From: a virus
Virus record (IMG/VR): IMGVR_UViG_3300045988_014506
DNA: 50,496 bases
Reading direction: 5' to 3' (one strand)
Position numbers and translations under genes: made by a program. Below the pieces are notes generated by a model. The model had not been told where the DNA came from. It worked only from the letters and a program-made list of their open reading frames with translations, and did not search any database. This document shows positions 1 through 50,496 of the stretch, one piece after another; the stretch's first letter is position 1, and every line of letters begins with the position of its first letter.

Positions 1-48
1 TACTATTTCATTGTAACACATAAATCTGGAAAGTGCAATAGGTTTTTT
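1..48. repeat. Terminal direct overlap (identical to 50449-50496)
   Basis: Read directly: tactatttcattgtaacacataaatctggaaagtgcaataggtttttt occurs at both window ends. Consistent with a circular or circularly permuted genome of about 50448 bp. The sequence is also part of a multi-copy promoter cassette. Confidence 0.8.
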
Positions 49-2311
49 AAAATTTTATTTCTTCTCCATACCAATTAGTTGTAACTTCACAATCACACTT
101 AAATGGTAACTTGATTAAATCTGCTGGGGCTTCCCTCATAAGTAAAGATAACCTTTCAGCACACTCTTTAGCATTTTCTCGTGGACATTCTCCAATTACT
201 TCATCGTGTACTTGGATAATTAAATGGAAATCTAATTCTTTCATTCTAGCATCATTATTTATCTTTATCATTGCTAACTTAGCCATATCTGCTGCTGAAC
301 CTTGCACCCTAGCATTAACACACTGTCTCTCTGCTTGTGCTATAAATCCTCCATTATCTTTAATCTTAATACCACGACTTCGTGCTTCTTCTAATATTTG
401 AGATTTTTTCTGCCAACCAAAAGCCCCATTTAACTTACGAGTATATTCTCTCTTAATACTACTTGGTACTTCATTAGATATCTCCTGACCAAATGCCAAT
501 GGGTCAAAACCAATAGGATTTCCACCATCTAATGAGAATTCATAAGGTTCTAACTGCATATCAGGTAGATGTCTCCTTCTGCCCCAAGCAGTAGTTACAT
601 AACCTTTAGTCCTAGCCATATCTTGACTTTCATCAATAAAATTAGCAAGAGCAGGAAATGATGCCATAACCTTATCATATATCTTTTGAGCTTCTTTAGT
701 TGATACTCCTAACTGCTCACCAATAGATGGTATCTGTCTGCCATATAATATACCCAATACTATACTCTTAGCTTGAGTACGTCTTTCTTTACCTGCTGGA
801 TTAACTGTACCATCTTTTCTAAATTCCAGACACTCTTCATATGGTTTGCCAAAAGCCAATCCTGCTATAGTTGCATATATATCTTTTCCGTGGATAAAAG
901 CATCTTGCATAGTCTTATCATCTGAAAGATATGCAGTTACCATAGGTTCTTGCTGACTGTAATCTCCACCTATTAATACATAACCATCTTGAGCTTTAAA
1001 CATTGTTCTAATTTCTTTGTTATGAGAAGGTATGTTCTGCATATTAGGGTCACTTGAACTAAATCTGCCTGTCTTTGCTCCATACTGATTATAGTTACAG
1101 TGTATTCTTCCGTCAGTATGGACAATTTCTGGCATCTTATCAATATAAGTACTAAGTAACTTATCCACTTCCCTAATACCTAATATTGCTTCACATAAAT
1201 TTTTTTCTCTACCTTTAGCAAAATGCTTAAGTATATCTTCACCTGTTCCTCTAGGTGATGTCTTATTAGGACTCTCAAGTTTAAGAATATCATAGAACAA
1301 AATTGCAAGCTGAGTAGGACTACTTAAACTAATTGGGTCAGATAACTTATTATTTGGATGTTCCATACGATAAGTATCTACTAAGTCATCATACATTGCT
1401 AATGCTTCTTGTGCTTGTTTCTGTCTCTCATCTTTAATCTTATGATATTTTTCTATTAAGTTATTTGCTATATCGAAGTCAAGACATATACCTCTATCTT
1501 CCATATCACAGCATACTTTCATTACTGGCATCTCAATATTTCTAAATACATTGTAAGGACCTTCAAGGTCACAACTACTAAATAGATTTTCTTGATGCTT
1601 GTAAAGCTCATAAGTTTTTATAGCATCACCGGCTGCATATAAATATGCCACACTTATTGGAACTAAGTCAAATACTATTCCAGAAAATAACTTATCAAAT
1701 GTTAAACTTTCAGTATCTGTACTATCACAATACTTAAGATGTAAATCTTTAAGTCTATGACTTTCATTCTCATCTATACAATTTCCTGCTAGCATTGTAT
1801 CCCAATAACAGTTTAAATCTATGCCTATGGTATGTCTAACTACCCTTATATCGTACTTAGCATTGTGCATAATCCACTTACATCTTGGAGTATTATTAAA
1901 TTTTTCTAAGTACGGTTTTATATCAGCTTCGGTCAGCTGATTAGATGTTCTAGCACCTGTAACATAACTTTTATGGTTTATAGGTATATAAGCTGCCTTA
2001 AGTGTTGGTGTATATAAGCACACGCCAACTAAATCTAAAGTTAATGGATTTAATCCGGTTGTCTCAGTATCAATGGCACACACTTTATTCTTTATTGCTT
2101 CTTCAATATAGTTCTCAAAAGATTCTATATCTCTAATAATTATGTAGTCATCTTTATGGTGAGAGAGTTTTGCTTCTGCCATTGAAGACATTGCTTGTAT
2201 CTGGGTGGCTATATTACTGCCACCCTTTATACTGGAACGTGTCTTAGTTGACTTAGATTTCTTAACTATATCTTTGTCATTAACTTTAGGTCTGCTAAAT
2301 GATAAAGCCAC
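47..2311 (-). CDS. polA: Family A DNA polymerase (PolA-like) with 3'-5' exonuclease domain
   Basis: 754 aa. Exo I motif CAIDTETTGL. Pol motif A GGDYSQQEP, motif B RRTQAKSIVLGILYG, motif C QVHDEV. GTG start overlaps the upstream TAG (TAGTG). Confidence 0.9.
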   Translation of the reverse strand: MALSFSRPKVNDKDIVKKSKSTKTRSSIKGGSNIATQIQAMSSMAEAKLSHHKDDYIIIRDIESFENYIEEAIKNKVCAIDTETTGLNPLTLDLVGVCLYTPTLKAAYIPINHKSYVTGARTSNQLTEADIKPYLEKFNNTPRCKWIMHNAKYDIRVVRHTIGIDLNCYWDTMLAGNCIDENESHRLKDLHLKYCDSTDTESLTFDKLFSGIVFDLVPISVAYLYAAGDAIKTYELYKHQENLFSSCDLEGPYNVFRNIEMPVMKVCCDMEDRGICLDFDIANNLIEKYHKIKDERQKQAQEALAMYDDLVDTYRMEHPNNKLSDPISLSSPTQLAILFYDILKLESPNKTSPRGTGEDILKHFAKGREKNLCEAILGIREVDKLLSTYIDKMPEIVHTDGRIHCNYNQYGAKTGRFSSSDPNMQNIPSHNKEIRTMFKAQDGYVLIGGDYSQQEPMVTAYLSDDKTMQDAFIHGKDIYATIAGLAFGKPYEECLEFRKDGTVNPAGKERRTQAKSIVLGILYGRQIPSIGEQLGVSTKEAQKIYDKVMASFPALANFIDESQDMARTKGYVTTAWGRRRHLPDMQLEPYEFSLDGGNPIGFDPLAFGQEISNEVPSSIKREYTRKLNGAFGWQKKSQILEEARSRGIKIKDNGGFIAQAERQCVNARVQGSAADMAKLAMIKINNDARMKELDFHLIIQVHDEVIGECPRENAKECAERLSLLMREAPADLIKLPFKCDCEVTTNWYGEEIKF

Positions 2312-3309: not shown

Positions 3310-3438
3310 ACTAATTCTCCTTTCTACTTTTGGGTCTTTTTTGTTCTTGAAGTATATTCCCAGCTTTATTCTACTTCTTTCCCCAATGAACGCATTTCTG
3401 ATATCCGGTCCTTTGTAGTTTTTGTCTGCCAGGGAAAA

Positions 3439-3525
3439 GCGTAAGGAAGGAATCGAACCTACTCACCTAGTCAGATTATTTCAGTACCTTAGTCTGCTAG
3501 AGCTCTACCATTGAGCTACTTACGC
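3439..3525 (-). tRNA. tRNA-like gene, isotype unresolved (aberrant anticodon region)
   Basis: Minus-strand read: GCGTAAG-TA-GCTC-AATGGTA-GAGC ... GTAGG-TTCGATT-CCTTC-CTTACGC. It has a perfect 7-bp acceptor stem, a canonical D arm and a GGTTCGATTCC T arm with one T.T mismatch. 39 nt lie between the D and T arms where a class I tRNA has about 23. No CCA is encoded. Confidence 0.5.
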
Positions 3526-3691: not shown

Positions 3692-4192
3692 CTATTTAAT
3701 TATATCTAAAACTTTAGTAGCATATCCTATTTCATAATCTACAGTATATGGTTTTCCACTAAAGTAGACTTTAATATATTTCTGTCTAACTTCAACATAT
3801 GCTATATTCTTCTTTTCACCTTTATTCTTAACAGCCATACAACCTGGTGAACTAGTATATTCTTTAACATCAAAATCTCTAGATAATGCTTCAAGCACAT
3901 TCTTATAATATTGTGTTCTGTCTATTTTATTTGATGACTTTCTACTTCTATTAGTAGGTTTCTTGCTACTTTTTTCTTCACTGTCTGAAGATATATCACC
4001 AGCAGTATTTTGTTCTTCACTAATAAGTGAGTACCATCTTCTAATAGTGGCATATCCCACACAAATTGACTTGCCTTTATTCTTTCCATTCTCGTACTCA
4101 TAGATAACTGTTTTTCTAATATCATCTACTTCTATAATTCTTATAACAGTTTCATTATCTCTCTTGCTTAAATACTTTTCTCCAATATTCAT
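3692..4192 (-). CDS. hypothetical protein (166 aa)
   Basis: The track ORF starts at a GTG at 4231. I prefer the ATG at 4192 (MNIGEKY), which is preceded by AAAGGAG. Confidence 0.6.
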   Translation of the reverse strand: MNIGEKYLSKRDNETVIRIIEVDDIRKTVIYEYENGKNKGKSICVGYATIRRWYSLISEEQNTAGDISSDSEEKSSKKPTNRSRKSSNKIDRTQYYKNVLEALSRDFDVKEYTSSPGCMAVKNKGEKKNIAYVEVRQKYIKVYFSGKPYTVDYEIGYATKVLDIIK

Positions 4193-4278
4193 AATATTTC
4201 TCCTTTTCTCTTTACCAACCACCACTACCACTTATATTATTGGTGTTTTAAGTGTTATCGCCTCACTATTAAGTTTAC

Positions 4279-4422
4279 TTACTGGTCGTCTTCTAACTGG
4301 TCTATATCATACTTTCCTTCTTCAATGGTTTGCACTTCCCAGCTATCTGAACCATCATTACTTTCTACTTTATAATGGTCTTTGTAATGCTTTATAGTGT
4401 AACCTTTGTAGTTAACATCCAT
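4279..4422 (-). CDS. small hypothetical protein (47 aa), first gene after an early promoter cassette
   Basis: Hand-translated: MDVNYKGYTIKHYKDHYKVESNDGSDSWEVQTIEEGKYDIDQLEDDQ. AAGGAGG lies 7 nt upstream. Below the track length cutoff. Confidence 0.45.
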   Translation of the reverse strand: MDVNYKGYTIKHYKDHYKVESNDGSDSWEVQTIEEGKYDIDQLEDDQ

Positions 4423-4503
4423 ATAAACTACCTCCTTATTTATTTATTACTATTTTATTGTAACACATAAATCTGGAAAGTGCAATAAGTTTTTTAAAAT
4501 TTA
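4423..4503 (-). promoter_or_regulatory. Early promoter cassette, copy 1
   Basis: Minus strand: TTGCAC (-35, 4480-4485), 17-nt spacer, TACAAT (-10, 4457-4462) preceded by TGT (extended -10), then an AT-rich leader and GGAGG. The core is near identical to the copies at 38243, 43649 and 50424. Confidence 0.75.
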
Positions 4504-5442
4504 TTAAAAAATTTTTTTAAGTTTTAAGAAATCTTCTTGGAGTTCATTTATATCCCTACCATCTTGGTAATCTAATTCTTTAATAATCTTACCTTTTACA
4601 TAGTACCTAAATCTCTCGGTTGCCTTCCTACCAGCATCATCTGGGTCAAAAGCAAGTATATAAGTTCTAACAGGTAATTTGCTCAATATATCATACTGAA
4701 ACTGATTTCCAGTACCAATCATTGCCATACCCGGTACATTATACTTCCAACCTGTTAAGCAGTTTAGAAAACTTTCAGTTATCATTGCTTCTTTGTACTT
4801 ACCTGAAGTAAACATATTAGCACAGTATATAGGCTTGCTCTGTTCTTTAGGTAATCCAAAAAACTTAGTCTTAACTGACCTGGTTGCTACAAATACTACT
4901 CTTCCGTCTAAATCTTTAATTGGGAAAGTTAAGCAGTCCCTCTTTGAGTCATAACCAATATCAAACCTTTCTATAATATCATCAGTTAATCCTCTTTCAT
5001 ACATATAAGGATGGATGTATCTATAACTATCTAATTCTTCTTCGGTTATATCATTAATTTCTTGGGTTTCTCTGCGGTTTCTAATATCTCCTGTAAATAT
5101 CATAGGTCTCGTCTCTATCTCAAGAGAATTAAATCGCTTTACTAACCATCTTGTTCCAAACTTTCCATTATCTATATAACCAAAAAGTTCGCTAATCATC
5201 TCAGATATTGTGCCACTCCAACCACAAGTAAAGCAATGGCACTTTCCATCATCTATATTTATGCCAAAAGAAGGTTTACGTTCTTGACCATTCTTATGGA
5301 ATGGACAGTTTGTCTGAATATTTCTACCATTAGGTCTAAACATCATAAATCTATCCACTCCTTTGATATATAGTTCTGACTTTAAAGTATTTAGAACATC
5401 TTGCATATCTGCTTGGATTATAGTTTCTTCTAACTTAATCAT
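4504..5442 (-). CDS. dnaG: DNA primase (CHC2 zinc finger + TOPRIM)
   Basis: 312 aa. Zinc finger CPFHKNGQERKPSF...CHCFTCG. TOPRIM-like ITESFLN and AFDPDDAGRKA. Confidence 0.85.
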   Translation of the reverse strand: MIKLEETIIQADMQDVLNTLKSELYIKGVDRFMMFRPNGRNIQTNCPFHKNGQERKPSFGINIDDGKCHCFTCGWSGTISEMISELFGYIDNGKFGTRWLVKRFNSLEIETRPMIFTGDIRNRRETQEINDITEEELDSYRYIHPYMYERGLTDDIIERFDIGYDSKRDCLTFPIKDLDGRVVFVATRSVKTKFFGLPKEQSKPIYCANMFTSGKYKEAMITESFLNCLTGWKYNVPGMAMIGTGNQFQYDILSKLPVRTYILAFDPDDAGRKATERFRYYVKGKIIKELDYQDGRDINELQEDFLKLKKIF

Positions 5443-7910: not shown

Positions 7911-8699
7911 TTAGAAAATAAACCTAGGGTTATTCATCATACTATCCACCCTACTGTTATGGTCCTCTATTGATTCTTTATCTGTGTTATCTAATCTATA
8001 TGACTGCTTACTTGACTTCTGAGTATTTATAAATATTCCTTTATAACCATTTCTAATGGAATTATTTATTGCTTCTAACTGGGAATGCTCATCTACACCA
8101 GCTAAAGTATCTAATGTTAAAGTCAACTGGTTTTCAGCAGGATAGTCTCCTTTATCAATTCTATCCGAATAAAAATCTAAAATCTTATCCATAACTTTTT
8201 CTGAGAATTCATATTCAGCAAACTTACCTAAAACTTTGTCTAGATATCTGTCTTTCTTGGTTTTAGATTTCTTTTCGTTTTTTAAATCTTTATTTACTTT
8301 ATCTTTATTTACTTTATCTTTATTTAATTGTTGTGGTTTTTCTATATGTTGATTTTCTACATATAGATTTTCTGTACCTTGTTTTTTACCATCTTGTTTT
8401 TTAGGACTCTCAAAGAAGTTATACTCATATTCAAATCTACCTGAATCTGTTTGACTCGGAAGTTTCTTAATAACTACAAGATATCCATTGTTCTTTAATT
8501 CTTCAAGGGCAGAATTAATTGCTGTCCTATTCTCTTTACAGATTGAAACTAAACCATTCACTGTATAGTCCCAGTTATCAGGTAAAGATAATACTAAACT
8601 TAAAAGCCCTTTAGCTTTAAGAGTGAGATTATCATCTCGCAAGTGATAATTACTCATAACTGTATAATTACTATTCTTTTCAACTCTACATATTGACAT
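7911..8699 (-). CDS. putative replication initiator / replisome organizer (N-terminal wHTH, DnaD-like C-terminus)
   Basis: The N-terminal pattern NYTVMSNYHLRDDNLTLKAKGLLSLVLSLPDNWDYTVNGL is typical of Firmicutes phage/plasmid initiator HTH domains. Start moved to the ATG at 8699, which is preceded by AAGGAGG. Lies upstream of the loader/helicase/primase genes. Confidence 0.5.
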   Translation of the reverse strand: MSICRVEKNSNYTVMSNYHLRDDNLTLKAKGLLSLVLSLPDNWDYTVNGLVSICKENRTAINSALEELKNNGYLVVIKKLPSQTDSGRFEYEYNFFESPKKQDGKKQGTENLYVENQHIEKPQQLNKDKVNKDKVNKDLKNEKKSKTKKDRYLDKVLGKFAEYEFSEKVMDKILDFYSDRIDKGDYPAENQLTLTLDTLAGVDEHSQLEAINNSIRNGYKGIFINTQKSSKQSYRLDNTDKESIEDHNSRVDSMMNNPRFIF

Positions 8700-8760
8700 A
8701 TTAATAACCTCCTTGGTAATTATAGTGCGTGCCCGCTTAATGGACACGCACTTAAAGTAA

Positions 8761-9312
8761 CTACATATTTAGAACATCATCAACTTGCTTATCTACTTCG
8801 CTATTAACTTTTGCCCAAAGTTTTTCCCTGACTTCATCAACTTGTTCTGGTGTTTTAATTACCATTGGGTCAACTGCCCATTCTTCTTCAGCTGTAAACT
8901 TATAATAAGTATCATTCTTCTGTATAGTACAACCACTCATATATCTAATAGATACAGGCACAACACCTTCTGGTATACTATTAGAAGGTTCATCTGCTGC
9001 AGCGTCTTGGGTATTCTCTGCATTTTTATCTTTACTTGTATTGTTGGAAACCTTTGACTGTTTCTTGTCAGAATCTTTAGCCTCTGATTTCTCAGATTTA
9101 TTTTCTTCTTTTACTGCTCTTTCATCTTCAGGTGGGTTCATATCTTTTTCTATTGGATTACTTTCCTCTTCAACTTCAACCTTTTCTTTACTTGGTTCAT
9201 AACCAGCACATTGGTCACAAGATATAGTTTTACCTTCTACTACCATATCTACACCATTGCAATCTTTACAATATTCATCACTGGCATCTCCTGCCCATTT
9301 ACACTTATACAT
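8761..9312 (-). CDS. hypothetical protein with N-terminal Cys4 zinc ribbon and acidic linker
   Basis: 183 aa. CKWAG..CKDC...CDQC. SD GGAGG. Confidence 0.55.
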   Translation of the reverse strand: MYKCKWAGDASDEYCKDCNGVDMVVEGKTISCDQCAGYEPSKEKVEVEEESNPIEKDMNPPEDERAVKEENKSEKSEAKDSDKKQSKVSNNTSKDKNAENTQDAAADEPSNSIPEGVVPVSIRYMSGCTIQKNDTYYKFTAEEEWAVDPMVIKTPEQVDEVREKLWAKVNSEVDKQVDDVLNM

Positions 9313-9329
9313 TTTAATTTCCTCCTATT

Positions 9330-9521
9330 TTATGATTTTTTTATAGGTTTCTTTGAAACCTTAGATTTTAATCCAGCTATGCTATCTAATATTTTCTTAG
9401 CCATTGACTTCTTGTATTTATCATCTGACTTAATAGCTGCTCTTCTTTCAAATCCTAAGAATGGATTTGACCTATGGTAACTTCTATGACTTCTTTGCTT
9501 ATGCTTTAATGCTCCTGCCAT
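9330..9521 (-). CDS. small highly basic protein (63 aa)
   Basis: ORF track. SD GGAGG. K/R/H-rich. Confidence 0.5.
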   Translation of the reverse strand: MAGALKHKQRSHRSYHRSNPFLGFERRAAIKSDDKYKKSMAKKILDSIAGLKSKVSKKPIKKS

Positions 9522-9534
9522 AATATCCTCCTAA

Positions 9535-9942
9535 TTATTTCTTTTTGCTGATTCTTAAGGTTACAACTTCTGCTCCTGGTGTTCTACAAGATTGAAGTTT
9601 ACTAATATCGAACTTACCTGCATATACAAGTTTTTCCAAAGCATCATCATCAATATACTCTTTTGTCTTAATAACTGTAGATAAATCTTCTTTGCTTAAG
9701 TTATCTTTAAGAATATCAATGGCTTTTAGTTCATTAAAATCTTCTTTCTGAGTTACTGTAACTTTAGCTGTCCACTTATCAGATGAGAAATTATCTAACT
9801 TATTGCTGGTCATTATACGTTTAATCTCATCTCCTAAAGCTGAGATTTTTTTCTTGATTTTTGATTCTTCATCTTTACCAGATTTATAATCATCAATCAT
9901 ACCACCAAGGTCAACTGTTGCTTTTCCATCTCTTCTGCTCAT
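9535..9942 (-). CDS. hypothetical protein (135 aa)
   Basis: Start moved to the ATG at 9942 (MSRRDGK), preceded by AAAGGAGG. Confidence 0.55.
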   Translation of the reverse strand: MSRRDGKATVDLGGMIDDYKSGKDEESKIKKKISALGDEIKRIMTSNKLDNFSSDKWTAKVTVTQKEDFNELKAIDILKDNLSKEDLSTVIKTKEYIDDDALEKLVYAGKFDISKLQSCRTPGAEVVTLRISKKK

Positions 9943-10256
9943 TACTTTGCCTCCTTTCTTTCTAATACTTTTGTACCATACTGCCCCCATTGGTAATAAG
10001 CATTAAACTCTGCCATAATTCCTCTATACTTGCTTTGTAAGTCTTCTTTGAACTGTTCAAGGCTAGCAATATCGGACTGCTTAAATAGCATTGTCTTCCT
10101 ACTATCTCGGACATATGATGGTAACTTTAATTCAATAGGTTTCTCATAATCCGGATTCTCATACCATCTATACCACCTTTTTATGGTATTGGTTGATATA
10201 TCCAATATCTGAGCAACTCTTGAAATACTAAATAATTTTTCTTCTCTATTTCCCAC
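9942..10256 (-). CDS. putative MerR/excisionase-type HTH DNA-binding protein
   Basis: 104 aa. FSISRVAQILDISTNTIKRWYRW. GTG start with GGAGGTGA 4 nt upstream. First gene after a promoter variant. Confidence 0.55.
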   Translation of the reverse strand: MGNREEKLFSISRVAQILDISTNTIKRWYRWYENPDYEKPIELKLPSYVRDSRKTMLFKQSDIASLEQFKEDLQSKYRGIMAEFNAYYQWGQYGTKVLERKEAK

Positions 10257-10322
10257 TTACTCACCTCCTTCTTATTACTCTAATTATTGTAACACATAAG
10301 AAATAAATTGTAAAGTATAGAT
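10257..10322 (-). promoter_or_regulatory. Promoter cassette variant, copy 2
   Basis: Minus strand: TTTACA (10309-10314), 17 nt, TACAAT (10286-10291) with TGT extension. It shares the tatgtgTTACAAT core with the early cassette, but the -35 and spacer differ. Confidence 0.6.
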
Positions 10323-12047
10323 TTAAGAAAGTAATTGGTAAATCATATCCATACCTAGTTTACCTCCTTTACCATCAACTAAAGCGTCTGAAACTAATCC
10401 TTTCTTATATACTATATCTTCTATTCTTTCATCAATGGTATTCTTTGTTACTAAAGTTATGATATTTACAGTTCCCTGAGTTCCAATTCTGTGTGCCCTA
10501 TCTTCTGCTTGGTCTTTTAATGCTCTATTCCAAGGACTATCTAAGAATATAACTGTCTGGGCAGCTGTAAGGGTTAAGCCTGTTCCCATTGCTCCTATTG
10601 TTCCAATAATAACTTTACATCTATCATCATTTTGAAACCTTGAAACTTCTTCCATTCTTTCATTAGGTGAAGTGTCTCCAGTTATATAAGCAGGATTATA
10701 TTTAGATAATCTTTCTTTTGCTATGCTAGTAATATTACTCCAGTTGCTAAATATAATACATTTCTTTCCTGCTTGTGCTAATTCTTCAACTAACTCTTCC
10801 ATTCTATCAAGTTTAGCAGACTCTTTAACTTTATCACTAAGTATACCTGTATACCCAGTAGCTTGTCTTAGTCTTATAAGCATAGATAATGGATTATTAC
10901 TAAACTTAATCTTATTTATATCACTCATAACACCATTATATACCTCATTGTAGATTACTTTCTGTTTAGTTCCCATTTCTACATATTCTACTTGGTGCAT
11001 TTTTTCTGGTAAATCTAAAACTTCCATTTTTAGTCGTCTAAGCATTACTAAATCCATAAGTTCCCTTATCTCATCTAAGTTTTTAAATCCAACAACTTCG
11101 GAACCACCCCAACCACCAAGTGTACAGTAGTGTTGCTTAAATTGATAAAAACTATGCTGCTCATATCCTAACCAATGTAGTGGGAAGTATAAGTCAAGTG
11201 GATTATTCATTAGAGGCGTACCACTCATAGCCACCATATATTCTGCACTGATTAAACTCATTGCTCGACCTTGTAAAGATGTTGGATTCTTAGCTTTGTG
11301 GCATTCATCAAAAGCAATCATACTTATCTCACCACTCTTACATAATTCAGCAATCTTCTCTGCTATTGGGAATGAATACTTTGTCTTACTAACTTTCTTT
11401 GCACCAGCCCTTAAAGTTTCTATATTAGTTATTATAAATTTACAGTCAGGAAGGTTATTTAAGTCTGCGAGTTTATCATTGCTGCTTCCCTCATAAGATT
11501 TACCATTCTTTCTAAATCTTGTACCTAATACCCATCCTTTCTCATTACTGTGTATTTCTATTTCTGACTGCCAGTTATATTTAAGTGAGTTAACACCACA
11601 AACTATTAGTACTTTATTTATGCTATGAATATGACTTAAGCATCCTGCTAAATCTATAATCTGCTTGGTCTTTCCAAGACCTTGGTCATCACAAAGTAAA
11701 AACTTGTTATTAGCTAATCCAAACTTTACACCATCTAACTGGTGAGCAAAAGGTTTGGTCTTAAACTTATAAGTTTCAGGAATCTGTATATCATCAAGTT
11801 TTTTAGTTTCCATATCTTGATATATTCCAGTTATCTCAATTTCTTCATTCTCAAACTTATTACATAAACCAATTATATTAGAAACAGGCATTTCCCAAGT
11901 ATGATTTTCTGGGTTATAAACTCTAGTTCCCATATTCTTGATATACTGAACTATTGTACCATTATAGTCAAAACTAACAAAAGCTGAATATTTGACTAAT
12001 ATATTTCCTGATAATTTTTCTGGTTTATCAATTCTTATCTTAATCAT
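10323..12047 (-). CDS. SNF2-family (DEAD-like) helicase/translocase
   Basis: 574 aa. Motif I DDQGLGKT, motif II FDECHKAKN, motif VI QAEDRAHRIGT. Confidence 0.85.
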   Translation of the reverse strand: MIKIRIDKPEKLSGNILVKYSAFVSFDYNGTIVQYIKNMGTRVYNPENHTWEMPVSNIIGLCNKFENEEIEITGIYQDMETKKLDDIQIPETYKFKTKPFAHQLDGVKFGLANNKFLLCDDQGLGKTKQIIDLAGCLSHIHSINKVLIVCGVNSLKYNWQSEIEIHSNEKGWVLGTRFRKNGKSYEGSSNDKLADLNNLPDCKFIITNIETLRAGAKKVSKTKYSFPIAEKIAELCKSGEISMIAFDECHKAKNPTSLQGRAMSLISAEYMVAMSGTPLMNNPLDLYFPLHWLGYEQHSFYQFKQHYCTLGGWGGSEVVGFKNLDEIRELMDLVMLRRLKMEVLDLPEKMHQVEYVEMGTKQKVIYNEVYNGVMSDINKIKFSNNPLSMLIRLRQATGYTGILSDKVKESAKLDRMEELVEELAQAGKKCIIFSNWSNITSIAKERLSKYNPAYITGDTSPNERMEEVSRFQNDDRCKVIIGTIGAMGTGLTLTAAQTVIFLDSPWNRALKDQAEDRAHRIGTQGTVNIITLVTKNTIDERIEDIVYKKGLVSDALVDGKGGKLGMDMIYQLLS

Positions 12048-12318
12048 TCTTATTACCTTCCTTTATTCTCTCAACTTGTTCTGCAGTAAAAAATGCTGAT
12101 AATTTTGGAAAACATCTACTAACTTTCTTTTCTTCTCCTGTTTCTTTATCTTCCACAACTTTTATAGAATACTTCCATATTGTTATCTTATGTTCTGACT
12201 TTTCACCTTTCTTAACTTTATATCCAAGTTTTTTCCAAGCTTCATAAGTATGTAATTGAGTATCTAGTGGAATACCTTTTTCTAATTTATATCTAGCAAT
12301 AATATCATTGTTACTCAT
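12040..12318 (-). CDS. ArdC N-terminal-like (DUF1738-like) ssDNA-binding domain protein (putative)
   Basis: 92 aa from the ATG after the SD GGAGGTG. HTYEAWKKLGYKVKKGEKSEHKITIW resembles the ArdC-N signature (T..QW..LG..V.KGEK). First gene after a promoter cassette. Confidence 0.4.
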   Translation of the reverse strand: MSNNDIIARYKLEKGIPLDTQLHTYEAWKKLGYKVKKGEKSEHKITIWKYSIKVVEDKETGEEKKVSRCFPKLSAFFTAEQVERIKEGNKND

Positions 12319-12391
12319 AATATGCACCTCCATATTTATTTATTACTACTTTATTGTAACACATAAATTCTTAATTGTAAATAGTTTTCTC
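12319..12391 (-). promoter_or_regulatory. Promoter cassette variant, copy 3
   Basis: Minus strand: TTTACA (12376-12381), 17 nt, TACAAT (12353-12358) with TGT extension. The leader ATGGAGGTGCATATTATG is identical to the copy at 43649. Confidence 0.6.
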
Positions 12392-37588: not shown

Positions 37589-38242
37589 TTAGCATCCAAT
37601 CTGTCTAGCAGACATAGCTGATTTTCCTTCCTGCTTTCCTTCATACATTGCTTGTTTAGTATGACCGTATGTTCTTCCATTACTTCTAATACTAATAGAA
37701 GTGTTTTTTGTGCCAAAATCTTTAGAATATTCAGCATAGCTTTCCTTAACTTCTTCAGGTATAACAATCATAAGAGCGGTACACTGTGCATCCAATGCTT
37801 CTTTAACACCAGAAGTAAAACCATAAGTAAAAGAATTATAAACTCCAGAAGCACTTCCTACTTCTTTCTTAACTTTACGAGTATAAGCATTAGCTTTCTT
37901 ATCACCTACCTTATATAGGTATTCAAAAGTTGAGCAAGCTACTTCAGTATCTGTCTCATACCCATAAAAGTAAATTCTTCTTCCACACATAAACATCTGG
38001 CATCTAAAATTTCTAGCTATTACTGATGCTAGTGAATACTTCCATTTTGCCAAACCCACATCAGTAAACTTTTCTACAATATTCTCAGAAGTTTCATCAT
38101 TAATATCTGATTCTTTAATATTGTACTTTGCTAATAATTCTTGTGCTTTCAGTGCTGCTGCCTTTGCTTCTTCTTCGGATGGATTATTCTTTGATAATTC
38201 CAATACCTTCTTAATTGTTGCAATAATTTTCTCATTCTTCAT
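37589..38242 (-). CDS. DUF2786-like protein
   Basis: 217 aa. The N-terminus IATIKKVLELSKNNPSEEEAKAAALKAQELLAKYNI matches the DUF2786 pattern. First gene after an early cassette. Confidence 0.55.
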   Translation of the reverse strand: MKNEKIIATIKKVLELSKNNPSEEEAKAAALKAQELLAKYNIKESDINDETSENIVEKFTDVGLAKWKYSLASVIARNFRCQMFMCGRRIYFYGYETDTEVACSTFEYLYKVGDKKANAYTRKVKKEVGSASGVYNSFTYGFTSGVKEALDAQCTALMIVIPEEVKESYAEYSKDFGTKNTSISIRSNGRTYGHTKQAMYEGKQEGKSAMSARQIGC

Positions 38243-38334
38243 AAGAACACCTCCATATATTTAATATTTATTACTACTTTATTGTAACACATAAATCTGG
38301 AAAGTGCAATAGGTTTTTTAAAATTTGTAGAAAA
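38243..38334 (-). promoter_or_regulatory. Early promoter cassette, copy 4
   Basis: Minus strand: TTGCAC (38304-38309), 17 nt, TACAAT (38281-38286) with TGT extension. The core is identical to the other copies. Confidence 0.75.
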
Positions 38335-39279
38335 TTACTGCAGACAACTAACAACTAAGTAGTCTAAAGCCACGTCTTCGTCAATCAAACCTTTCTTTAT
38401 ACCACTTTCAACTTCTTGGCATATAATCATATTTCTGACTAGTTCTTTATTACTATAACCACCTATATTTTTCTTAACTTGCTGTATTTGCCATCCAGTT
38501 AAACCTGTTCTAATACCTGGATTAGATTTGTCTTTTCCGAGTCCTTGGTAAGCTAGCATATTTCTAAAACCATTATATAAGATACTTGCTATTACCATTG
38601 AAGGTTCATTCTTAAGTTTTGCTTCTTGTAATACTTTACCTGCTTTTTCTAAGTCGCCATAAAGTACGGCATCTGTAAGTTCAAAAGTTATATCTCCTAT
38701 ATCTGCATAGATAGCATCTTGGTTTATTAGCATAGCAAAAGCATCAACGGCCTTAAGTTTTGTGGCATTCATATAATGAGTTATCTTATCACACTCTAAT
38801 AGTATCCTGCCATAATCATTACCACACATATTGCATAGTTTCTCCGCATTATTCTCGGGTAGCTCTGGGATTATATTAAGTATATAGTTAATTAATACAC
38901 TGGTATCTAATTTATTGAACTCTACACAGATTTCTTTATTTCTTGTATAGAATTTTCTAGTTTTATTAATATTAGCATACCGAAGTATAAGTATATGCTT
39001 ACTGGAATTAACTATATCTTTCACACTTTCCCATTTATCTTCTTTATTTGTATATTCAGAATCTTCAGTAACCACATAAGCTTTAACTGACTTGTCCAAA
39101 GATTTCTTATCAATACGACTTAGTACAGAAGATACATTATCACAGTGCACTATCTTATATCCAATATCTGCAATCTTACTAAGGTATATATCTAATATCT
39201 TTTGCTCTTCTCCAAACCATATAGAATACTTAGGCGGATTACTATTAGATATTGATTGCATAAGTTTTACTAATTCCAT
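38335..39279 (-). CDS. Clamp loader delta-subunit-like protein (putative)
   Basis: 314 aa. The N-terminus PKYSIWFGEEQKILDIY resembles HolA (YLLYGEE.fL). Lies in an operon with the DnaX-like and delta-prime-like genes. Confidence 0.5.
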   Translation of the reverse strand: MELVKLMQSISNSNPPKYSIWFGEEQKILDIYLSKIADIGYKIVHCDNVSSVLSRIDKKSLDKSVKAYVVTEDSEYTNKEDKWESVKDIVNSSKHILILRYANINKTRKFYTRNKEICVEFNKLDTSVLINYILNIIPELPENNAEKLCNMCGNDYGRILLECDKITHYMNATKLKAVDAFAMLINQDAIYADIGDITFELTDAVLYGDLEKAGKVLQEAKLKNEPSMVIASILYNGFRNMLAYQGLGKDKSNPGIRTGLTGWQIQQVKKNIGGYSNKELVRNMIICQEVESGIKKGLIDEDVALDYLVVSCLQ

Positions 39280-41450: not shown

Positions 41451-41825
41451 CTAAATATCTCCCTTCTGTCTATTGTTTGCTTTATGAATATCAAAACCTT
41501 CTGGGTATCGTGCTTTTAACTTATCTATATTCATTTCCATAATAGTATCCAAGTCATAACCGCAAGCGTGGCACATTAAAGCTAAATACCAAAGTATATC
41601 TCCCATTTCTTTCTTAAAATGTGCTTCATCCATGGGTGTTCCGTGATAGATAAATTTCTTTACCATATCATTAAGTTCACCTACTTCACCAGAAAGACCT
41701 AATGAAGCATTTAAAACTTCACTTATGTCTACAAGCATATTACTATCAATCTTGCTTTGTAGTCTTTCCTTACATCTTCCATCATTAGTTCTCATTGCTA
41801 ATTCTACATATTCCTTGCCAGTCAT
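41451..41825 (-). CDS. mazG: MazG-like nucleoside triphosphate pyrophosphohydrolase
   Basis: 124 aa. LGLSGEVGELND and EMGDILWYL motifs. Confidence 0.8.
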   Translation of the reverse strand: MTGKEYVELAMRTNDGRCKERLQSKIDSNMLVDISEVLNASLGLSGEVGELNDMVKKFIYHGTPMDEAHFKKEMGDILWYLALMCHACGYDLDTIMEMNIDKLKARYPEGFDIHKANNRQKGDI

Positions 41826-43342: not shown

Positions 43343-43648
43343 TTACTTATACTCCATACAACACTTCTGGTCATTCCAATAATGTACTTTACTAACTATA
43401 AGATTATCACGGTTGCTCACTTTTGTACTTACAAAGTAGTCATTCTTATTAGCTTTGCCAATAGTATTGAGATTTAAGTCTGTCTTAACAATAGTTCCAC
43501 TATCTGTTGTAACTACAACTTGTGTCTTTGTAAATTTTGTTATTGTTCCAAACTCACCAAATATAGTATGTCCGGAACCACACCGTGCAACAAGCACTTT
43601 CTGTCCAAGTTCTATTTCTTCAAACCTTCCACAATTAAAAATCTTCAT
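43343..43648 (-). CDS. hypothetical protein (101 aa), first gene after an early cassette
   Basis: The track ORF runs upstream through the promoter. The real start is taken as the ATG at 43648 (MKIFNCGRF), 6 nt after GGAGGTG. Confidence 0.6.
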   Translation of the reverse strand: MKIFNCGRFEEIELGQKVLVARCGSGHTIFGEFGTITKFTKTQVVVTTDSGTIVKTDLNLNTIGKANKNDYFVSTKVSNRDNLIVSKVHYWNDQKCCMEYK

Positions 43649-43736
43649 AATATGCACCTCCATATATTTAATATTTATTACTATTTCATTGTAACACATA
43701 AATCTGGAAAGTGCAATAGGTTTTTTAAAATTTATT
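43649..43736 (-). promoter_or_regulatory. Early promoter cassette, copy 5
   Basis: Minus strand: TTGCAC (43711-43716), 17 nt, TACAAT (43688-43693) with TGT extension. Leader ATGGAGGTGCATATTATG. Confidence 0.75.
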
Positions 43737-43769
43737 AAAAAAAAATAAAGCAGGATAATCTCCTGCTTT
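43737..43769 (-). terminator. Rho-independent terminator
   Basis: Stem AAAGCAGGA (43747-43755) / TCCTGCTTT (43761-43769) with a 5-nt loop. Followed on the minus strand by ATTTTTTTTT. Lies directly after the recA-like stop. Confidence 0.8.
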
Positions 43770-47683: not shown

Positions 47684-48352
47684 TTATATATCTTTCTTTT
47701 TAAGAAAGTTTGTTACTGGTCTTGTAATAAATGGTACAAGTACACTTTCAATTAGCACTTCTAAAGATGTTCCTAATAATACTACACTCAACATATCTTC
47801 CCATCTCATCTCAAATGCTGATAACCCAATAGGTGCAAAAGCAATTACTAAGAATATTAAGTTATCGCAGAATTGACCTACAATAGTCGATAAAACTGCT
47901 CTTATAAAGAATAGTATAGAATTATCATTTCCTTTACTGCAAGCTCTATCTCTTAATACTACCATAATATGAGTATTAATATAATTACCAATCCAGAAAG
48001 CAATAAATGATGCTAATGCCGTTCTTACACCATTACTAAATATTAAAGCAAAAGCTGAATTCTGGTCTGGATAAGTCCCAGGTAAAGCAATAACTAATTG
48101 AGCTAATATTACTACAAATAAGTTAAGTAATCCGGCTAAAGTAAATGACCTAACATTGGCTTTCTTTCCATATATTTCTGTAGTTATATCTCCTACCATA
48201 AAAGGTATCCAAGAAACTACCGTTCCACCTCCCATCAATGCAAAAGTTGTAGACCCAATAGTTTTCATCTCAAATAAATTCTGTACTACTGTAAATACGC
48301 AGTAGATACAAGTTAACAATGCTAGATAACTAAATGTACTTTTTTTGTTCAT
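47684..48352 (-). CDS. yhhQ: YhhQ/DUF165-family queuosine-precursor (preQ0/preQ1) transporter
   Basis: 222 aa polytopic membrane protein. FPFMVGDITTEIYGKK-type motif (here IPFMVGDITTEIYGKK) and overall YhhQ-like topology. Confidence 0.75.
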   Translation of the reverse strand: MNKKSTFSYLALLTCIYCVFTVVQNLFEMKTIGSTTFALMGGGTVVSWIPFMVGDITTEIYGKKANVRSFTLAGLLNLFVVILAQLVIALPGTYPDQNSAFALIFSNGVRTALASFIAFWIGNYINTHIMVVLRDRACSKGNDNSILFFIRAVLSTIVGQFCDNLIFLVIAFAPIGLSAFEMRWEDMLSVVLLGTSLEVLIESVLVPFITRPVTNFLKKKDI

Positions 48353-48364
48353 AAAAATTTCCTC

Positions 48365-49291
48365 CTAAAATAATGTTCTTCGTGTAATTTTACTCTCATT
48401 CTTACACTTATAGTTTTTTGCCCAGTTTATTAAAAATAAAGCATTGGCTTTTATTCTTGATACATAATCTGTCTGGACTTCTTCTAAAGTTAATCCAATA
48501 CTTTCTAAATAATCAGATAACTTCTTTTGAGCTTCTGCTGGCATTTTGGCTATATTTCTATCCACATCAATCCTAACTTCGCTACATACAATCTTTCCAT
48601 AAGGTGTCCAAACATCTCCCATAACACCAGCTAAAATCCAAGTAGTTGAATCTGCACTAGTCAATGGAAATTCTTCCATTATATCTAAACTAGTCATACC
48701 AAAAGCGTGAGTCTTAACATTAGGATTAGAACTCTGCTTTATTATAGTGAAGCATTTATCTAAGAATTCTGATTTTGCTTTCTTAGACACATCTCCTCTA
48801 GGTGACAATCCAACATACTCAACTTTACTTCCATCTTCATCACGGAATTCTAACATATTTTCTAACCATTTAAAATTCTCGCCTTGATGGAATACAGGAA
48901 TAAGTTTTTCTGGGCTCTTTACTTTACTTCTCATATATAAGTAATTCTCCCAACTCATTTCTGGGGCTTCTGCCCAATCTTTTGCTGTCTTATGCTGATG
49001 GTACACACCCGGTATCTTATCTACTTGAGCAAAAACTGTAACATACTCATCTATGGAATTTATGAATTCTATATAATCATCCACATCCACTACTCTGCCT
49101 TTTGTATGAGCACTATGAGCACCTGAATCTATAAACAGTTTTTCTTCAGGTTCAGGATTTGGATGAGTTTCAATCCATTTCTTAATGGCCCCACGGTCAT
49201 TTAACTGGCTGAATAATCTTGGTACTTTTGCTTCAGTAAGTAAATCTTGTAATTCCTTGGGACCACCCCCAGCATAATATAAGTCAAGCAT
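48365..49291 (-). CDS. dpdA: DpdA-like DNA-guanine transglycosylase (TGT superfamily)
   Basis: 308 aa. LFIDSGAHS parallels the TGT catalytic-Asp motif DSGGFQ. HAFGMTS...TSADSTTW parallels the second TGT Asp region. Adjacent to yhhQ. Confidence 0.6.
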   Translation of the reverse strand: MLDLYYAGGGPKELQDLLTEAKVPRLFSQLNDRGAIKKWIETHPNPEPEEKLFIDSGAHSAHTKGRVVDVDDYIEFINSIDEYVTVFAQVDKIPGVYHQHKTAKDWAEAPEMSWENYLYMRSKVKSPEKLIPVFHQGENFKWLENMLEFRDEDGSKVEYVGLSPRGDVSKKAKSEFLDKCFTIIKQSSNPNVKTHAFGMTSLDIMEEFPLTSADSTTWILAGVMGDVWTPYGKIVCSEVRIDVDRNIAKMPAEAQKKLSDYLESIGLTLEEVQTDYVSRIKANALFLINWAKNYKCKNESKITRRTLF

Positions 49292-49307
49292 AGCTTATCC
49301 TCCTTTC

Positions 49308-50216
49308 TTAAAATAATCTTTTAGAAGCTGTACTCCTTTTATATTTAGGAACTTCAACTTCATTATAGCATATAGGGTTTAACCTGTCAACATATAATAA
49401 CTTCTTGCTTTTATTATAGTTATTATTAAAATTTCTCCAAGTTATTCTGCCCTTACTATCACGACTTAAACCATAATCTTTATACTGATTACACAAAGCA
49501 TCTAAATCTTTTTGTAGTATTAAGTCTCTTCTTTCTACATCATCACCAAATATACTAGACACATTCATATTAAGATTCTTCTTAATTCCTGTAGTTACTG
49601 TATACCAAGTATAACCTTTAAGTAACCATCTAATAAGAAAGTCAATATCTTCCCTACCTTCTCCATTGTTAGCATCAATATTCTGAAAGTAAAGCTGGGT
49701 ACCTTTATGTTTATATATATTTAATATAAAACCGCAAGCTGACCCAGAATTCAATTCCCTAGGAATAAATCTATGCTTATCTAACACTAACTTGTCTTCG
49801 TAGTTTTCTTTCTTATATGGATGATACTCAGGCTCCAATAATGATATAGCCATAACTTCATAGAAATCTTCCGGATATCTATTTATCTGGTCAAATAATC
49901 CTTCTATATCATAATAAGGATACCATATGGTATCATCATCACAGAGCATAAGAAAGTCATACTGTGTACTATAGAAATAGTCTAATAGTACATTTCTGGC
50001 TTTTCCTGCTCCTAAAGGCTGGTCATATACTATATACTTAATACCGTCTATAAAATCTGATTCTTTATAATTCTGAGCTACAACGATAAACTCATTGTCT
50101 GGATATACTTTGCGTATATGCTCTGCTTGTACCTTAATAGCATCTAACCTTTTCTTTCTTATATTACAATCATCTGGTAAGTATGATACTATACCAATCA
50201 TAACACTATTTTCCAT
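49308..50216 (-). CDS. GT-A fold (family 2-like) glycosyltransferase
   Basis: 302 aa, no TM segment. N-terminal IGIVSYLPDD, GAGKARN, DxD-type LMLCDDDT, EGREDIDF. Confidence 0.55.
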   Translation of the reverse strand: MENSVMIGIVSYLPDDCNIRKKRLDAIKVQAEHIRKVYPDNEFIVVAQNYKESDFIDGIKYIVYDQPLGAGKARNVLLDYFYSTQYDFLMLCDDDTIWYPYYDIEGLFDQINRYPEDFYEVMAISLLEPEYHPYKKENYEDKLVLDKHRFIPRELNSGSACGFILNIYKHKGTQLYFQNIDANNGEGREDIDFLIRWLLKGYTWYTVTTGIKKNLNMNVSSIFGDDVERRDLILQKDLDALCNQYKDYGLSRDSKGRITWRNFNNNYNKSKKLLYVDRLNPICYNEVEVPKYKRSTASKRLF

Positions 50217-50225
50217 AATTGTCTC

Positions 50226-50423
50226 CTACAATGTTCTACCAACCACTATTCCTAATGCTGAATAGAATGCTTCTGCAATCTGCTTATTAGAATATTCTGA
50301 ATAGTCAAAACCATTACACTTCATACTTTCACAGACTTCTACAAGATTAAAATCTAAGAACTCTCCCGTCTGGTCAAGTACTTCTGTAATCTGCTCCACA
50401 AAATAATTTCTAATCTTACTCAT
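50226..50423 (-). CDS. small hypothetical protein (65 aa), first gene after an early cassette
   Basis: ATG at 50423 (MSKIRNYF), 6 nt after GGAGGTG. Confidence 0.55.
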   Translation of the reverse strand: MSKIRNYFVEQITEVLDQTGEFLDFNLVEVCESMKCNGFDYSEYSNKQIAEAFYSALGIVVGRTL

Positions 50424-50496
50424 AATATGCACCTCCAGATTTATTTATTACTATTTCATTGTAACACATAAATCTGGAAAGTGCAATAGGTTTTTT
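50424..50496 (-). promoter_or_regulatory. Early promoter cassette, copy 6 (continues into 1-60 if the genome is circular)
   Basis: Minus strand: TTGCAC (50481-50486), 17 nt, TACAAT (50458-50463) with TGT extension. Confidence 0.75.
50449..50496. repeat. Terminal direct overlap (identical to 1-48)
   Basis: See the feature at 1-48. Confidence 0.8.

Follow-up and report, generated by a model that had tools for sequence, protein, structure and literature searches.

What does a soluble glycosyltransferase do beside an enzyme that exchanges bases in DNA? The question is raised by a viral genome from IMG/VR, IMGVR_UViG_3300045988_014506 (50,496 nucleotides, analyzed in full and called the window below), in which three consecutive minus-strand genes encode a YhhQ-type membrane transporter (222 aa), a DpdA-like DNA-guanine transglycosylase (308 aa), and a GT-A glycosyltransferase (GT; 302 aa), with the boundaries given in an earlier note (Table 1). 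That note read the locus as a salvage-only 7-deazaguanine DNA-modification module and offered two acceptors for GT, the modified base or a host surface polymer. We posit, as an evenly balanced proposition, that the importer supplies a precursor, DpdA swaps it into DNA, and GT, docked on the phage sliding clamp, glycosylates that DNA, probably at the deazaguanine.

Predicted base exchange and precursor supply

The 308-aa protein carries the LFIDSGAHS and TSADSTTW motifs from which the earlier note assigned it to the tRNA-guanine transglycosylase (TGT) superfamily as a DpdA, an assignment that holds. It matches phrog_887 (“queuine tRNA-ribosyltransferase”) with E=1.6e-54 and is 43-44% identical over its full length to gp7 of Streptococcus phage Dp-1 and to the DpdA of Bacillus phage Flasso. 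Sequence and profile searches against PDB sequences returned nothing meaningful, and the fold search alone reached solved structures: the best 50 PDB matches found by Foldseek with the AlphaFold2 model (pLDDT 92.2) are all TGTs, of bacterial, archaeal, or eukaryotic origin (E about 1e-6, TMq about 0.6). Four residues, D55, D91, H135, and D214, are invariant in 43 homologs. D55, in FIDSGA, pairs with D89 of Escherichia coli TGT (LTDSGGFQ) in a local hhalign alignment of low significance (E=0.063), and D214 lies in TSADST; compared by spacing, D55/D91/D214 (36/123 residues) come close to D95/D130/D256, the catalytic residues in Salmonella DpdA (35/126; PMC10164549). Residues 171-226 are matched by the NCBIfam DpdA model at profile positions 209-267, and the score against the bacterial DpdA equivalog NF041059 is 15.9 bits vs a cutoff of 200, so this is not the enzyme of the Dpd island.

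By analogy with the 43%-identical Dp-1 enzyme, the substrate is likely to be DNA rather than tRNA: dPreQ1 makes up 1.7% of G in Dp-1 virion DNA (PMC6884629). A phage Tgt that acts on tRNA, in a module that tunes translation, would fit the TGT fold, the name given to the family, and the presence of a tRNA-Leu gene in the genome. We consider it highly improbable, given that the closest characterized relative has its modification in DNA, that the gene lies between those for a DNA polymerase and a sliding clamp, and that the C-terminal tail described below correlates with PolA/DnaN neighborhoods.

The 222-aa protein is a member of the YhhQ/DUF165 family, as proposed earlier: it exceeds the thresholds of Pfam Vut_1 (PF02592; E=2.3e-32, 112.9 bits vs a gathering score of 27.2) and of TIGR00697, “queuosine precursor transporter” (66.5 bits vs 50.95), and falls below that of the E. 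coli YhhQ equivalog NF008406 (27.6 vs 252 bits). Its putative substrate, preQ0 or preQ1, is taken from the family annotation. The genome itself encodes no route to either base. Pfam and PHROGs scans of the complete genome found no FolE, QueD, QueE, QueC, or QueF, and the que enzymes of Dp-1 and Flasso, used as tblastn queries, gave no genome match below E=0.4. In Dp-1, genes for a QueF-like protein, QueC, QueD, QueE, and FolE stand directly upstream of QueT-DpdA, and we considered that their counterparts might lie past the edge of the window. This was ruled out: the window, a circularly permuted genome, has a terminal direct repeat of 48 nt, and an independent 50,503-bp contig, 100% identical, joins its end to its start. 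The window is thus a complete circular genome of 50.4 kb with no genes hidden past its edges, which strengthens the earlier claims that precursor genes are missing from the window and that the phage relies on imported or host-made precursor. Since the phage makes none, YhhQ would import it. A preQ1 riboswitch, sought in the window and six related loci, was not found; the only matches were to tRNAs.

There is nothing unusual about this part of the module, a widespread form of a known system. Phages with DpdA but no precursor synthesis, some of them carrying YhhQ, have been recognized since 2019 (PMC6884629), and DpdA+YhhQ alone is the most frequent type among 80 related loci. Dp-1 resembles the window not only in its DpdA but also in a syntenic replication module (DpdA, DnaN, Cas4-like exonuclease, RecU-type resolvase, and RecA); it differs in having its own precursor genes and QueT where the window has YhhQ, and in lacking GT.

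Two further genes occur around YhhQ in relatives. A GDSL/SGNH hydrolase gene, absent from the window, adjoins YhhQ in many of them, with or without GT (L009:9930-10553 and L010:9939-10556; likewise in L045, L047, L049, L057, L065, L101, and L118), and imported precursor in acylated or conjugated form might be a substrate of the hydrolase. Both de novo cassettes that bear GT encode a divergent QueC (L013:8886-9638 and L015:7263-7985), which passes the Pfam QueC gathering score although tblastn queries with QueC of Dp-1 and Flasso miss it. In L051 and L053 (PolA-YhhQ-QueC-DpdA-DnaN), it is paired with YhhQ, without QueD, QueE, or FolE, which suggests that this QueC acts on an imported base.

The glycosyltransferase, its neighbors, and its tail

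Fold and family predict that GT is a metal-dependent transferase of sugars from nucleoside diphosphates (NDP-sugars), and this does not by itself identify the acceptor. The earlier description of a soluble GT-A enzyme stands: LMLCDDDT, GAGKARN, and EGREDIDF are present, the DDD is invariant, and the AlphaFold2 model (pLDDT 94.4) adopts a GT-A fold with Foldseek GT-A matches at E about 1e-6. The score against Pfam Glycos_transf_2, 24.6 bits, is barely over the gathering score of 23.3, and that against the TAGT family PF20691 is below it (20.2 vs 27.5 bits, E=6e-4). The family numbers 197 homologs at 90% clustering and 334 representatives at 50%; their names are uninformative, and most of the long contigs that hold them are of phage size. 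In 66 members R23 and D93-D95 are conserved (D94 in at least 90%), and 14 of these match TAGT (best E=7e-6) and 14 GT2, all weakly. Sequence and profile searches of GT against PDB sequences returned nothing meaningful, and a tblastn search of phage records gave a single weak match, to Sinorhizobium phage Phosso. Structural matches in PDB are generic (ppGalNAc-T2, TarP, B4GALNT1, SpsA, and AvpGT; TMq about 0.5). Those among viral models include several TET-associated GTs and a T-even-type beta-glucosyl-HMC-alpha-glucosyltransferase; besides generic GT2 enzymes, the TET-associated and T-even DNA glucosyltransferases thus appear to be the nearest named relatives.

Gene neighborhoods tie GT to DpdA. 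A GT-anchored search of IMG/VR, which used narrower alignments and sampled very distant GT relatives poorly, gave nine loci, and in all eight with enough flanking sequence DpdA lies within 2.1 kb of GT; in the phages sampled, the close GT clade occurs only beside DpdA. A DpdA-anchored search gave 80 loci, of which eight have GT, always inside the cassette. In these loci, a modular 7-deazaguanine cassette fills the PolA-DnaN gap; it is made up of DpdA+YhhQ, DpdA+QueT, or DpdA with QueC/D/E/FolE with or without QueF, and such types also occur with GT. Relatives at about 50% identity keep PolA-GT-DpdA-(SGNH hydrolase)-YhhQ-DnaN. The orders seen are GT-DpdA-YhhQ, GT-DpdA-SGNH-YhhQ, GT-DpdA, YhhQ-DpdA-GT (L093), GT-DpdA-YhhQ-GT (L014), and, in de novo cassettes, DpdA-GT-QueC..QueD-QueE-FolE and DpdA-QueC-GT-QueD-QueE-FolE (L015), so that GT may precede or follow DpdA, stand between QueC and QueD, or be present in two copies. 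The two GT paralogs of L014 (4695-5513 and 8001-8774) flank DpdA-YhhQ and, by analogy with the gentiobiosyl-5-hydroxymethylcytosine of T-even phages, hint at a two-sugar modification.

The dependence is one-sided. In the DpdA tree, loci with GT occupy six or more branches, interleaved with loci that lack it; GT is a clean indel of ~0.9 kb between sister phages whose DpdA proteins are 84-85% identical, more than their polymerases. The presence of GT thus implies that of DpdA but not the reverse, and DpdA is unaltered, which is the pattern of an optional step after base insertion. The interleaved tree and the identity of about 85% also rule out GT-associated DpdAs as a special clade with an altered pocket. 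They likewise bear on the idea that GT acts on the free precursor, either making a glycosylated or processed base or nucleoside for DpdA to insert or trapping the precursor in the cell. A nucleoside-glycosylating GT-A enzyme is among the fold matches (AvpGT with Ara-A), and GT stands beside YhhQ and, in relatives, the SGNH hydrolase. We nevertheless regard this as very unlikely: GT also accompanies de novo cassettes or DpdA alone (L012, L013, L015, and L064), the base pocket is probably unchanged between sisters with and without GT, and a replisome-type tail makes little sense on a small-molecule enzyme.

That tail is shared by GT (SKRLF) and DpdA (RRTLF). A C-terminus of the form [KR][KR]x?LF is found on only three of the 75 ORFs in the genome: the third, an Nlig-Ia (ligase N-terminal domain-like) protein ending in KRRLF, would be a peripheral member of a putative set of clamp clients. 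Both tails are low in confidence or disordered in the models (pLDDT 56-68; in GT, the last ~12 residues). Across the fetched loci, LF-type C-termini occur on 15 of 17 GTs and 68 of 86 DpdAs and on none of the YhhQ (0/35), DnaN (0/65), PolA (0/64), or Cas4-like exonuclease (0/55) proteins, nor on any QueC, QueD, QueE, or SGNH protein. Among database homologs, the tail is present in 118 of 120 close GTs and 105 of 120 DpdAs. In the wider GT family, 44 of 111 full-length representatives have it; it becomes rarer with distance and is absent from the long fusion forms (0/18). For DpdA, it goes with neighborhood: 12 of 13 DpdAs beside PolA/DnaN have it and none of the 10 located elsewhere, in bacterial and archaeal genome bins (loci L117-L137). 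The DpdAs of Dp-1, Flasso, and Pseudomonas phage NP1 end in RQRRLF, GKLF, and IQELF, respectively, and that of NP1, a member of Queuovirinae, is directly followed by a phage processivity factor (DpdA at L115:19827-20765). LF-tailed DpdAs beside a phage clamp gene span Firmicutes phages to Queuovirinae, and the DpdAs from non-phage settings have no such tail. Several loci (L083, L084, L087-L092, L094, and L099) contain tandem DpdA paralogs, one with an LF/LI-type tail (RQRSLI) and the other without (ELKSGFNF), recalling the heterodimeric eukaryotic TGT with its one catalytic and one accessory subunit.

The β-clamp motif, often C-terminal, is Q-φ-x-[LM]-[FL], and disordered ends in [LM][FL] bind the clamp in Pol II and Pol IV (PMC11139829). 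In the window, GT and DpdA each have a disordered tail that finishes in [LM][FL], which suggests that they are clients of the phage DnaN encoded directly downstream. A precedent exists in the T4 alpha-glucosyltransferase, which binds the gp45 clamp (PMC13216743). Full-text literature searches found no report of a DpdA-clamp interaction, and the literature searched held no mention of the LF tail of phage DpdAs.

The shared clamp-type tail is the main argument for a GT that acts on DNA rather than at the cell surface. It is compatible with a second possibility, that GT modifies DNA at the replisome but has an acceptor other than what DpdA makes, either a different base or a handle supplied by an unrecognized enzyme of phage or host, and so lays down a second, independent anti-restriction mark. 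The position in the replication module and the TAGT-like similarity would suit this, and the known deazaguanine side chains are not classical O-glycosyl acceptors (PMC10516641). Pfam and PHROGs scans of the genome found, however, no ThyA homolog (a ThyA-like hydroxylase or hydroxymethylase), TET, or cytosine or other methyltransferase, and in the loci sampled GT is never without DpdA and always inside a deazaguanine cassette; we think an unrelated acceptor quite unlikely. The same scans ruled out 5-hydroxymethylcytosine (5hmC) and 5-hydroxycytosine (5hoC) as the handle for GT.

The host surface polymer of the earlier note is the remaining alternative: GT would be a host-takeover or surface enzyme, acting on a wall polymer, lipid-linked glycan, or protein, that landed in a PolA-DnaN hot spot, and DpdA and YhhQ would work alone. 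The GT-A matches include TarP, TarS, and RmlT, the PolA-DnaN gap is clearly variable, a distant GT branch lies beside UDP-galactopyranose mutase and UvrA, and one family representative is fused to Stealth domains. TarP shares with GT the GT-A fold, a DXD motif, and a phage origin; TarP-type genes, however, serve lysogenic conversion, whereas GT is in the early replication operon of a phage that looks virulent, beside DpdA, and bears a replisome-type tail. GT lacks both a membrane segment and a polyprenol-linked partner, the LF-tailed clade never occurs without DpdA in the sampled loci and in L015 is embedded between QueC and QueD, and the tail that GT shares with DpdA is missing from the branch in a surface context. 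We therefore consider a surface role unlikely. Of the two acceptors offered earlier, the DNA-linked one is now favored because of adjacency to DpdA only, in several gene orders, the QueC/QueD embedding, and the tail in common with DpdA, with the distant branch counting on the other side.

The replication operon

The earlier note placed the three genes at the opening of the first early operon, which is essentially right except that GT is not the first gene: a 65-aa acidic ORF precedes it. The ORF has no significant family match in Pfam and PHROGs searches; it is present in the near-identical contigs L003-L008 and absent from the relative L009, in which PolA abuts GT. In the window, PolA lies across the junction, just upstream of the 65-aa ORF and GT. 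A promoter-like element heads the block 65-aa ORF/GT/DpdA/YhhQ/DnaN and forms, with a 5' untranslated region, a unit of ~75 nt present in four copies that are 92-97% identical (blastn against the genome). Each copy starts a block of minus-strand replication genes, and the -35 and -10 elements, ribosome-binding site (RBS), and ATG are invariant in the alignment of all four. The repeats are probably early or middle phage promoters, a role read from their sequence. A perfect sigma-70 consensus (TTGACA, 17 nt, TATAAT, TG extension) also lies within the last ~25 codons of GT, ~70 nt upstream of the dpdA start, and could allow expression of DpdA and YhhQ independently of GT.

Table 1. Positions of the genes and sequence elements discussed, in coordinates of the 50,496-nt window
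Feature	Position	Strand	Remarks
Soluble GT-A glycosyltransferase, 302 aa	49308..50216	-	R23 invariant; D93-D94-D95 (DXD)
GT tail, S-K-R-L-F-COOH	49311..49325	-	Putative sliding-clamp docking peptide
DpdA-like DNA-guanine transglycosylase, 308 aa	48365..49291	-	Dp-1 clade; phrog_887; TGT fold
DpdA tail, R-R-T-L-F-COOH	48368..48382	-	Same kind as GT tail
YhhQ/Vut_1 membrane transporter, 222 aa	47684..48352	-	Putative preQ0/preQ1 importer
DnaN-like sliding clamp, 364 aa	46575..47669	-	Acidic C-terminus; Pfam DNA_pol3_beta, E=4e-7; phrog_947 processivity factor, E=1e-35
65-aa acidic ORF	50226..50423	-	First gene after the promoter-like element
Promoter-like element	50458..50486	-	TTGCAC, 17 nt, extended -10 TGTGTTACAAT, then RBS GGAGG
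Promoter + 5' untranslated region repeats	50421-50496 (running into 1-48 over the junction), 4430-4511, 38236-38336, 43645-43742		Four copies
Sigma-70 consensus	49362-49390	-	Within GT
PolA	47-2311		
Nlig-Ia (ligase N-terminal domain-like) protein, 118 aa	39279..39635	-	C-terminus KRRLF
tRNA-Leu(AAG)	3438-3525		
SNF2-family helicase	10323-12047		
Small ArdC-N-like domain protein	12040-12333		Anti-restriction, ssDNA-binding domain type
MazG-type nucleotide pyrophosphohydrolase	41451-41825		

DnaN lies directly downstream of the cassette in most related loci of sufficient extent. In some relatives, inserted ORFs, probably of homing-endonuclease or intein type, break the PolA gene into two to four parts (L010:4674-8001, with a 231-aa ORF, and L013:3650-6810). 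The remainder of the window genome, in Pfam and PHROGs scans, encodes replication, recombination, structural, and lysis functions alone; other genes noted are those for a MazG-type pyrophosphohydrolase, an ArdC-N-like protein, and an SNF2-family helicase. A megablast search of the region against 50,697 phage records gave no match. Host labels from metagenome-assembled genomes are mixed (Prevotella, Bacilli, Lachnospiraceae, Bacteroidales, and others), which is probably binning noise. The phage looks like a virulent, Dp-1-like gut phage.

A sugar on deazaguanine?

The mechanism that we favor can be put as a sequence of steps. The cassette would be expressed early and act in DNA hypermodification. 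YhhQ would import preQ0 or preQ1, DpdA would exchange guanine in duplex phage DNA for the 7-deazaguanine base, and GT would then glycosylate the modified DNA with a host NDP-sugar as donor, the deazaguanine 7-substituent being the most likely site, while the x-x-L-F tails would hold both enzymes at the replication fork via the phage DnaN clamp. DNA as the acceptor is suggested by sequence and context, and the acceptor atom and the sugar are conjectural. That GT makes a glycosylated deazaguanine in DNA has, in our estimate, at best an even chance of being right. The fuller version, in which the glycosylated base is installed co-replicatively by DpdA and then GT, both riding the clamp by their LF tails, we put forward tentatively and as somewhat more doubtful than not. 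GT coupled to DpdA is a new variant of the deazaguanine system, and the LF tail is a second, independent lead.

Several observations weigh against this proposal. The fold of GT matches TarP, a wall teichoic acid enzyme, mucin-type enzymes, and other GT-A enzymes equally well. Nor is DNA the sole business of the wider GT family, given the Stealth fusion and the distant branch, which has ~30% identity to GT, a ~140-aa N-terminal extension, no LF tail, and no DpdA beside it. That branch is represented by a 443-aa protein on an 11.5-kb contig (L104:2520-3851), encoded between tail-fiber-like ORFs and UDP-galactopyranose mutase (3876-4994) and close to UvrA (8561-11380), in what is likely a prophage surface-glycan (galactofuranose) module. 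The link between GT and DpdA is not phylogenetically independent, because the sampled phages share one replication module (PolA...DnaN), and the PolA-DnaN gap could be a general insertion hot spot. The tails of the window proteins lack the canonical β-clamp Gln and have K/R or T there, and many family members have no basic residues before LF; Gln is present in the tails of some relatives (that of Dp-1, that of NP1, and others ending in RQRSLI).

The chemistry poses its own difficulties. The eight 7-deazaguanine derivatives described so far have neither a sugar nor a hydroxyl (PMC10516641), which leaves as candidate acceptors the dPreQ1 amine, the dADG amide, the dG+ amidine, a carboxylate, or another group. 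The GT-bearing de novo cassettes (L013 and L015) have FolE, QueD, QueE, and the divergent QueC and no QueF, which points to a precursor at the level of preQ0, whose nitrile is not an obvious acceptor. Some DpdA-only phages, moreover, show little or no modification (PMC6884629). The window is like this group (Hutinet et al. 2019) in having no genes for preQ0/G+ synthesis, the precursor being presumed host-made or imported; its definition drew mainly on Salmonella phage 7-11 and mycobacteriophages, in which little or no modification was detected, and the window is unlike it in its Dp-1-clade DpdA and added GT.

Known systems offer several parallels to the proposal. Sugars are attached to a 7-deazaguanine derivative after insertion by a TGT-family enzyme in the mannosyl-queuosine and galactosyl-queuosine of eukaryotic tRNA; there, the nucleic acid is RNA, the sugar goes onto the cyclopentenediol of queuine, a group absent from preQ0 and preQ1, and the transfer is by unrelated glycosyltransferases. 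T4 alpha-glucosyltransferase and the TAGT enzymes (PF20691), a GT-A family, glycosylate a modified base once the DNA has been replicated; they act on the 5hmC hydroxyl, and the window genome has no pathway to 5hmC, 5-hydroxymethyluracil (5hmU), or 5hoC. Another parallel is with the preQ1 methyltransferase and formyltransferase and the CDG decarboxylase, which, like GT, are encoded by optional genes beside an insertion cluster and diversify the 7-substituent (PMC10516641). Their reactions are methylation, formylation, or loss of CO2, and neither a glycosyltransferase nor a glycosylated derivative is reported among them. Full-text literature searches likewise turned up no glycosylated 7-deazaguanine in DNA, in line with the expectation of the earlier note that the described deazaguanine modifications include no such form.

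If true, glycosylated 7-deazaguanine would to our knowledge be the first sugar-decorated purine reported for any genome. Phage DNA glycosylation has so far been found only on the hydroxylated pyrimidines 5hmC, 5hmU, and 5hoC (PMC12783734, PMC13326640), and the reaction would be new nucleic-acid chemistry, an N- or acyl-glycosylation of a purine analog, catalyzed by enzymes that could serve for site-selective sugar tagging of DNA. Recent work describes defense glycosylases directed at deazaguanine DNA (bioRxiv 10.1101/2025.10.29.685425); these provide a plausible selective reason for a masking sugar, which would act as a second-layer shield against modification-dependent defenses such as the Dag glycosylases, much as glucose does on the 5hmC of T4. 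The LF tail, finally, suggests that base exchange by DpdA is coupled to the replisome, which would bear on how phages come to replace G partially, at limited motifs, or completely.

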